Shown: in pieces, positions 25,362-26,701 of the stretch
Layout of the letters: every line of letters starts with the position of its first letter
Position numbering within the stretch: position 1 is the stretch's first letter
Origin: a phage
Direction: 5' to 3' (one strand)
DNA: 64,000 nt
Sequence record: PZ452602.1
Translations under genes and position numbers: made by a program
Notes under the pieces: generated by a model
The model's database searches: none
Seen by the model: only the letters and a program-made list of their open reading frames with translations
Told to the model about the DNA's origin: nothing

Positions 25362-26141
25362 TTAATTAAAAATATATACTTCATCAGTTCCATTCTTTTC
25401 TTTGGAATGATATATGTTAAAGACGTATTTTTTATTAAGATGCTTAACATTATATTTTTTAGACCATTCTTTAAGAAGAGTGTTTTCCTTTCCGTGATGC
25501 TCTAAAACATTCGACAATCCAAATTTTATTCCTCTGTCATTTAAAGAATCTAAAAGATTTAAAAGGTCTTTTTCTTCTTCTTCTGACCAAAATTTATTAT
25601 AATCAGCAACTGTTATAAGATATGGAGGGTCCACATATACAAAATCGCCATCTAGAATTTTGACATCTTTAAAATGCAATGAACTAAAGATTATTTTATC
25701 ACAATTTTGTTTAAAGTGATTAAAGCGTTTTTCACTATTTTTGTTTATAGTTCTTTTTCCAAACGGAGTAGTAAAATTTCCTTTATCGTTTATACGAATC
25801 ATATTACTAAATCCGTGAAAATGAAGAACATAAAGTAAAAGAGGATCTCTAGTTTTATTATAATCTTCACGTAATTTCAAAAACTCTTCTTTTGATGTTT
25901 TTGATAGTTTGTATTGCTTTATTACTTTTAAAACGTCATCCCATGATACATTAATAAGACGCTTATACATTTCAATAATTGGGGTTTGAATATCATTAGC
26001 CAATACAGGGCCATTGACGTTCAAAGACACTGATAAACCTCCACAAAATAAATCCACGAATCTGTCATATTTTGGAAAGTGAGGCTTAAGTTCAGGTAAT
26101 AATGATTGTTTATTACCTGTATACGCGATAGCTCCTAGCAT
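25362..26141 (-). CDS. dam: DNA adenine methyltransferase Dam (GATC N6-A MTase)
   Basis: 259 aa; DPPY catalytic motif and FCGG SAM-binding motif. Confidence 0.93.
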
Positions 26142-26701
26142 TATATTCTCTCATTTATTGCAGCAAAAAATGAATTATACAATTCATCATCATATGTATT
26201 TGATAATAATACTAACACGTTTTGTGATTTAGCATATTCATTAAACCTTGCTTGGATGGTTGGATTATCAGTAAATGATTCTCTTTTTGTCCATTTATTA
26301 CGCGGATAATATCCGCATGGCAAAAAATCTAATATCATCAATGACACAGGGTTTTCAGTTTTTGTGTATTCTTTTAATTTCTCTTTATCTTCTAAATATA
26401 TTCCAACCGAATCAATAGCTGTACCTCCACCAACTTGGTGTTTAATTTCAATTATATGCTTTTTACCGTTGCGAGAAATAACAATATCAAATCTTCTAGT
26501 ACGCTTCTTAGTTATAAAATTAGAGCAAAACAAATTATTTGATTTTTCAGTATCATCAATTAAAACCATTTTTTCTTGATAACTAACTGAACAATCAGTG
26601 AAATATTCTTTTACTTTATTAAGTATGAAATTTTCAACTACGGCAGATATTTTATATGAATCTCCGTTTAAAGCCATTTCATGCACAATTTTATTAATCA
26701 T
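26141..26701 (-). CDS. hypothetical protein with PD-(D/E)xK nuclease-like motif, abutting dam
   Basis: 186 aa; [20 protein letters not shown] fits hhhD-x12-ExK; stop overlaps dam start; own early promoter upstream. Confidence 0.6.

Follow-up and report, generated by a model that had tools for sequence, protein, structure and literature searches.

A PD-(D/E)xK nuclease-like protein encoded next to Dam suggests a mobile restriction-modification-like cassette in T-even phages

The phage DNA considered here is a stretch of 64,000 nucleotides (nt) from sequence record PZ452602.1, referred to as the window, and it is a segment of a Tequatrovirus genome; the 1.1 kb around the gene of interest share 99.5% identity with Serratia phage PhiZZ30 and 98.5% with T2. 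Directly upstream of dam, the gene of the T-even adenine methylase, the window carries an open reading frame (ORF) of 186 amino acids (aa), here called R. We hold with high confidence that its product is a nuclease-fold protein functionally coupled to Dam. With much less assurance, though still leaning in its favour, we propose that R supplies the nuclease of a type II restriction-modification cassette, compact, mobile and consisting of two genes, in which the T-even Dam is the methylase and acts at GATC. Type II pairs with a PD-(D/E)xK endonuclease are a known kind of system. What is new is an uncharacterised minimal endonuclease family, its carriage as a mobile cassette by virulent hydroxymethylcytosine (hmC) phages and the implication that the orphan Dam of T4 is a derived state. 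R is labelled hypothetical in all GenBank records, and a literature and annotation search found nothing describing it.

Results

The R-dam locus

The features of the gene pair are as follows.

26141..26701, minus strand: R, PD-(D/E)xK restriction-endonuclease-like gene of 186 aa with an ATG start; PHROG 8706 (phrog_8706), function unknown
25362..26141, minus strand: dam (M), D12-class N6-adenine methylase; Pfam MethyltransfD12 E 7.9e-51, 97% identity to T4 Dam
26139..26143, minus strand: TAATG, overlap of R stop and dam start, read from the sequence
26441..26488, minus strand: catalytic core of R (D72, E85, K87), from invariant residues and the model hairpin
26709..26713, minus strand: Shine-Dalgarno GAGGA, 7 nt before the R ATG, read from the sequence
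26727..26755, minus strand: promoter-like site of sigma-70/T4-early type, (G)TTTACT-17-TATTAT with TG before the -10 hexamer; consensus match only

A previous sequence-only reading of this DNA had noticed that R shares its boundary with dam, and the two genes do overlap by one base: the TAA stop of R (26143..26141) and the ATG of dam (26141..26139) meet in TAATG, an operon-like arrangement that suggests translational coupling and has one promoter-like site upstream of it. T-even Dam, which that reading described as usually being called an orphan, is therefore not an orphan in the window, where it adjoins R. The same reading credited R with its own T4-type early promoter. A consensus-like site is plausible, matching 9 of 12 consensus positions with the TG present, and it sits within the cassette described below, so that the T4 deletion removes it; as a promoter claim this is weak, since promoter-like sites around R are not enriched over shuffled sequence (9 versus 12.6).

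Predicted fold and active site of R

The D/ExK core that had been called textbook from the sequence is borne out by comparison. The motifs RRFDIVIS (D72) and HIIEIKH (E85, K87) are present, the three codons reading GAT (26486-26488), GAA (26447-26449) and AAA (26441-26443) on the coding strand, and E23, D72, E85, K87, H88, Q89 and the segment G93-T-A-I-D-S98 are invariant in nine sequences of 29-63% identity. In an AlphaFold2 model computed from eight homologs (mean predicted local distance difference test score, pLDDT, 79.4; predicted TM-score, pTM, 0.78), R has the canonical core of helix, three strands, helix and strand (alpha-beta-beta-beta-alpha-beta). D72 and E85/K87 lie opposite each other on a single beta-hairpin, whose two strands comprise residues 66-77 and 80-88, and E23 is located on the helix preceding the strands. 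The invariance of D72, E85 and K87 in all nine homologs, together with their placement on the hairpin, indicates that the short motif exceeds chance. A Foldseek search of the model against the PDB matched exclusively PD-(D/E)xK nucleases, with modest TM-scores of 0.3-0.47, and membership of R in this superfamily is therefore secure. As modelled, R has a restriction-endonuclease (PD-(D/E)xK) fold in which the D...ExK site is intact and invariant.

Sequence profiles point to a particular branch of that superfamily. DpnII (PF04556; gathering threshold 23 bits, profile length 278 positions) was the best Pfam family for four of nine R members, with 15.7 bits for the window R (E 0.0099), 22.5 bits for the best-scoring member, the metagenomic P0009 (E 8.3e-5), and 19.5 bits for the family consensus, and the PADLOC model REase_II was matched with E 1.3e-4 by the window R and 5.3e-6 by the best member. 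Enzymes of the DpnII family are GATC-specific, Dam-sensitive and paired with Dam-class methylases, which is what makes the match suggestive. Scanning with the family consensus did not lift it past the threshold, and a wider consensus gave nothing. The NCBIfam scan of R returned noise only, and the PDB sequence search gave a chance-level match for the single R protein (E 0.69) and none for the family profile.

A small PD-(D/E)xK protein could also act as a strand-specific nicking or repair/recombination nuclease together with Dam, in the manner of MutH, or, without catalysis, as a DNA-binding partner or regulator of Dam. MutH shows that enzymes of this fold are able to read GATC hemimethylation, the nicking enzyme Nt.BspD6I is among the Foldseek matches, and R is small, lacking the N-terminal 140 positions of the DpnII profile. 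The invariance of all catalytic residues nevertheless speaks against a non-catalytic role, and the pattern of loss reported below, with R lost while M is kept and R never found alone, better fits a toxic nuclease neutralised by M. We consider this explanation quite unlikely.

R is found beside a Dam-class methylase gene

A word-index search and an exhaustive HMMER search of 1.8 billion clustered protein representatives recovered about a dozen relatives of R, all phage-like and none with an annotation or a function-linked Pfam domain. No relative was found by a pattern scan of 185,579 bacterial and archaeal species, one genome each and limited to two conserved motifs, and tblastn against 72,556 plasmids (E <= 10) gave no match. 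IMG/VR gave two R loci only, both in phages already known. The 50 BFVD matches listed include the ortholog of Dhakavirus MX01, the rest being weak and to uncharacterised or generic nuclease proteins. In these searches, the R family was found only in Tevenvirinae phages and related metagenomic contigs.

In every member with a readable context, R lies directly upstream of a D12/Dam-class adenine methylase gene, abutting or overlapping it. This is so in T2, in Dhakavirus MX01 (R 64% identical to that of the window), in the metagenomic contigs P0002 and P0006 and in the distant P0011 and P0013, whose R proteins are 29-35% identical. In P0009, R abuts a gene of 210 aa truncated by the contig end, and the product starts like the window Dam with 64% identity. 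Klebsiella phage KPV15, a Jiaodavirus with R at 43% identity, has the pair elsewhere, between the rIIB/endonuclease and topoisomerase genes; the pair, of about 1.4 kb, is present there in 6 of 151 Jiaodavirus records, the remainder lacking about 1.4 kb at that site.

The two genes have also diverged together, with a Spearman correlation of 0.74 between the divergence of R and that of M. The ratio of non-synonymous to synonymous rates (dN/dS) is 0.16-0.6 where dS is unsaturated, and near-identical Tequatrovirus alleles differ by more synonymous than non-synonymous codon changes (5:2, 7:2 and 4:0). By these comparisons, R and dam are co-inherited as a cassette under purifying selection, and across Tevenvirinae the two genes are acquired, lost or moved to another site together. 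The methylase-nuclease module surmised from the window gains support from the conserved, overlapping pair, which forms one moving cassette in three phage genera and at two genomic sites.

Presence, absence and decay of the cassette

The borders of the cassette and its neighbours in the window are as follows.

25322..26780, strand not assigned: dam+R cassette, 1,459 bp, from BLAST against cassette-less ECML-134
26142..26228, minus strand: R 3' end, codons about 159-186, the part kept by T4-type phages, from BLAST/alignment with T4 and relatives
24783..25316, minus strand: gene 56, dCTPase
26792..26992, plus strand: small ORF of 66 aa between cassette and gene 61; phrog_2024, function unknown
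26989..28017, minus strand: gene 61, primase

When window positions 24783-27300 were compared by BLAST with ECML-134, homology ended at 25321 and restarted at 26781, and ECML-134 has 40 unrelated bp instead; the indel of 1,459 bp holds dam, R and the R promoter-like site. A census was made of 535 Tequatrovirus-type phage records matching the gene 56-61 interval. Both dam and R are present in 147-149 of them; about 35 (T4, RB59 and others) have dam with the last 87 nt of R, about 330 have neither gene, and in a few (G4498, for example) exactly this slot is taken by an annotated homing endonuclease gene. R without dam was seen neither in this census nor in Jiaodavirus.

dam itself is accessory in Tequatrovirus, present in about 184 of the approximately 535 records, which is rarely stated although T4 is the reference. 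In vB_EcoM_G4498 (L017 821..1471), the annotated homing endonuclease gene, of 216 aa, occupies the slot equivalent to about 25322..26780 of the window. The junction between gene 56 and the 66-aa ORF therefore occurs in four states (empty, homing endonuclease gene, dam+R, and dam with remnant), and this varied occupancy marks it as a hot spot for alternative mobile inserts.

Such a setting recalls freestanding homing-type endonucleases, and R could be one: it would cut a specific site in insert-less genomes, the unoccupied 56|61 slot for example, and in mixed infections would thereby spread, with Dam as a hitch-hiking or self-protecting passenger. The cassette is indeed present or absent in an intergenic slot of otherwise collinear genomes and has its own promoter-like site, an annotated homing gene stands in the same slot of vB_EcoM_G4498 and its relatives, and T-even genomes are rich in homing genes, segF adjoining gene 56 in T4. 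A homing enzyme, however, does not need a methylase, yet a Dam-class gene adjoins R in every case seen, with identities as low as 29% and at two insertion sites, which argues against self-sufficiency. The stop/start junction is also tight in every lineage, dam outlives the deletion of R and never the reverse, and in structure as in sequence R is matched best by type II restriction enzymes, a sub-class that is likely rather than unique. On this evidence a homing-type role of R appears improbable.

About 145 records keep an intact R ORF with 95-99% identity, and the window allele, which is full length, does not differ from the PhiZZ30 allele. Elsewhere R has decayed. T4 and its relatives match positions 1-867 of a dam+R query, so that only 87 nt of R are left, and the 309-bp 'gap' between dam and gene 61 of T4 holds the 66-aa plus-strand ORF and this remnant (L001 3140..3202). 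The sequence-only reading had left open whether T4 has an ortholog in the dam-61 interval; T4 has none, hence none with another assigned function, and the deletion remnant is all that it retains. The T2 allele (L002 2656..3201) has lost 1 nt from a T-run, whereby the last seven residues are replaced (...SFLLQ*, 181 aa) and the R stop is separated from the dam start. As the T4 remnant ends like the C-terminus of the T2 allele, the T4 deletion arose on an already frameshifted, T2-type allele. Independent lesions are also found in KarlGJung, which has a different internal deletion, and in G4500, where R is frameshifted.

R has thus been lost repeatedly with dam kept, and the reverse was never seen, an asymmetry that would be expected if the nuclease is harmful without the methylase. 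Since T4 dam is preceded by the 87-nt remnant, its orphan state appears derived, and the comparison suggests that T4 orphan Dam is the remainder of a phage-borne restriction-modification module after a deletion of about 535 bp that took out the nuclease gene. T2 and T4 may both lack a fully functional copy of R. It is possible that R was overlooked because the classical laboratory phages carry a deleted (T4) or C-terminally frameshifted (T2) allele.

The recurrent inactivation in T4, KarlGJung, G4500 and T2, and the lack of R in most Tequatrovirus genomes, would also be seen if R were a relic in decay that no longer has a function in this phage. Against this stand the full-length window allele with its identical counterpart in PhiZZ30, the roughly 145 intact ORFs, the excess of synonymous over non-synonymous changes among close relatives, dN/dS below 1 between distant ones and the invariant catalytic residues. 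Of the explanations weighed here, we give this one the least credence.

The methylase and GATC

The window Dam and T4 Dam are identical at 252 of 259 positions (97%, BLASTP), and according to the T4 record, T4 Dam methylates GATC whether or not the cytosine of the DNA is modified. All cassette methylases, the most distant at 52% identity, share the DPPY motif without exception, and likewise S112, R116, P126 and R130, which we take to be GATC contacts in the T4 Dam-DNA structure. Based on these residues, methylation specificity within the cassettes is probably GATC throughout. Although T4 Dam is among the most thoroughly studied DNA methylases, what it does in vivo 'remains unclear' according to a 2025 review (PMC12707154).

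GATC is strongly depleted in the 64-kb window, with 74 sites observed versus 206 expected (observed/expected, O/E, 0.36), the lowest of the 16 palindromic tetramers and followed by TCGA at 0.61. We considered this as a footprint of the nuclease and rejected it, since the depletion is equally strong in ECML-134 without the cassette; it is therefore lineage-wide and not evidence for R.

The presence of Dam fits equally well if the methylase makes the substrate of R. R would then be a methylation-dependent nuclease (type IIM/IV, DpnI-like), an option that had been raised from the sequence, cutting G6mATC in cytosine DNA, such as the host chromosome or methylated competitors; hydroxymethylcytosine and its glucosylation would shield the DNA of the phage itself, and Dam would top up target methylation. 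T-even phages do degrade host DNA. However, R is a single-domain protein of 186 aa in which no winged-helix or other N6-methyladenine (m6A) reader domain was seen (single-domain model; Pfam, NCBIfam and PADLOC scans), unlike DpnI, and its closest sequence family, DpnII, is methyl-sensitive. Moreover, the host already gives full Dam methylation, which would make a tightly coupled phage Dam superfluous, and phage DNA would also be methylated and have only indirect protection. We rate methylation-dependent cleavage as a little less probable than homing.

Neighbouring genes

The 66-aa ORF is hydrophobic and lies on the strand opposite to the cassette and gene 61, overlapping the 3' end of the latter by 4 nt; GGAGG and a late-promoter-like GATAAATA precede it. 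It is kept in phages both with and without the cassette and is intact in T4 (L001 3239..3439 (+), equal to NC_000866 17738..17938), where RefSeq leaves the dam-61 gap unannotated. The gene 61.2 homolog (28186..28542, minus strand) has 118 aa in the window and in T2 versus 208 aa in T4, another length polymorphism of the same early-gene block. The replication origin oriA, which the sequence-only reading had tentatively located in this neighbourhood, is placed by the T4 record inside gene 56 and not in the dam-61 interval, and a link of oriA to R was rejected for this reason.

Discussion

Based on the fold, the invariant active site and the constant companionship of a Dam-class gene, we favour the view that R is the endonuclease of a type II restriction-modification pair. 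The parts of this proposal differ in strength. That R is a restriction enzyme controlled by Dam is, judged from the comparisons above, somewhat better than an even bet, and that it is specific for GATC and methyl-sensitive is about evenly balanced. In the mechanism we envisage, R and Dam would both be produced early, from a single transcript; R, probably as a homodimer, would cleave DNA at unmethylated GATC, while Dam would methylate the phage's own replicating DNA and thereby confer immunity. More speculatively, since E. coli DNA is already Dam-methylated, incoming unmethylated DNA would be the likely target. The victims would be chiefly superinfecting dam-less relatives, which are the majority (about two thirds) of sequenced Tequatrovirus, and T4-type phages with R deleted would retain an orphan Dam possibly as immunity against relatives that carry R. 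The cassette would then be both a weapon in phage-phage competition and a selfish, addiction-like element, which would explain the retention of Dam in T4 after loss of the nuclease.

The furthest-reaching form of this idea is that of restriction warfare among T-even phages, in which R would cut unmethylated GATC even in hydroxymethylcytosine-containing or glucosylated DNA and so exclude dam-less relatives that superinfect or co-infect the cell, T4-like phages keeping Dam purely as immunity. The support for action on modified DNA is indirect only: Dam works on hmC DNA, and a methylase would serve no purpose if the phage were already protected by glucosyl-hmC by itself. We regard this form as tentative, and rather unlikely as it stands.

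Several observations weigh against reading R as a GATC restriction enzyme. Its matches to DpnII stay under the curated Pfam cut-off (15.7-22.5 versus 23 bits) and span the catalytic core only, at profile positions of about 143-235 of 278, and R, with 186 aa, falls about 100 residues short of the enzymes of that family. The same stretch of R also matches BanI and HSDR_N, more weakly, and therefore the likeness to DpnII may be generic to the superfamily. In the Foldseek ranking, non-restriction nucleases (VC1899, Card1, Can2 and Bax1, with VC1899 and Card1 first) come before the restriction enzymes, and in view of this order and the modest TM-scores, the sub-class 'type II restriction enzyme' is likely, not unique. 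The gene order, R upstream of M, is unusual for systems that need methylation first. The T2 allele, C-terminally frameshifted, may be inactive, and the GATC O/E of 0.32 in ECML-134 (50 kb), a relative without dam and R, deprives the depletion of any bearing on R. Of the commercial type II enzymes, 94% are blocked by glucosyl-hmC (PMC7653180). T-even GATC contains this modified base, and the host is Dam+; the physiological target is therefore not obvious. Cleavage by R, its site and its methyl sensitivity are all predictions.

Comparison with known systems places the cassette between several of them. Like the GATC systems of the DpnII/MboI type (PF04556 with Dam-class D12 methylases), it pairs a PD-(D/E)xK endonuclease with a Dam-class GATC methylase. 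It differs from them in that R, with 186 aa instead of about 280, has no counterpart to the N-terminal half of the DpnII profile, in that R comes first and is followed by a single methylase gene instead of two, and in that the carrier is a virulent hmC phage and not a bacterium, with no bacterial or plasmid homolog of R in our scans. With type IIP enzymes of the MunI/EcoRI class (PDB 1D02), R shares a similar size (about 200 aa), a single domain and the same alpha-beta-beta-beta-alpha-beta core. Members of this class leave 4-nt 5' overhangs, as do /GATC cutters. However, R is only 11% identical to MunI in sequence, and no homology was detectable at that level; MunI, moreover, has CAATTG as its site and another kind of methylase as its partner.

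Among viruses, the chlorovirus PBCV-1 encodes a GATC system, R.CviAI/M.CviAI, that is expressed early (PMC7248222). Both there and here, a lytic virus has a GATC m6A methylase and a cognate endonuclease, which in the case of R is a predicted one. PBCV-1, however, is a eukaryotic giant virus, and its host DNA is not GATC-methylated, so that the target is obvious there and not here. No sequence or structural relation of R to PBCV-1 was detected, and no PBCV-1 protein is among the 50 BFVD matches listed. Like the T-even seg/mob homing genes, the R cassette is optional, lies between genes and comes with a promoter-like site immediately upstream; other phages have an annotated homing gene in the 56|61 slot that it occupies, and it may likewise bias inheritance in mixed infections. 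Unlike seg/mob proteins, R has a PD-(D/E)xK fold, not GIY-YIG or HNH, and its coupling to a methylase is obligatory, the two genes moving together. Finally, the window methylase is the same protein as the orphan Dam of T4, without being an orphan itself.

In summary, the comparative data suggest that T-even Dam was originally part of a two-gene restriction-modification-like cassette, and the old question of Dam function thereby becomes testable. If R is active, the pair may be the first type II restriction-modification system in a virulent T-even phage, no report of one having been found in the literature, and it would represent a new mechanism of phage-phage competition. An active R would also define a compact family of 186-aa restriction enzymes of possible practical use, especially if hypermodified cytosine is tolerated. 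Should restriction warfare prove true, it would provide an in vivo function for T4 Dam, together with a minimal, hypermodification-tolerant family of GATC endonucleases that is so far found only in Tevenvirinae phages.

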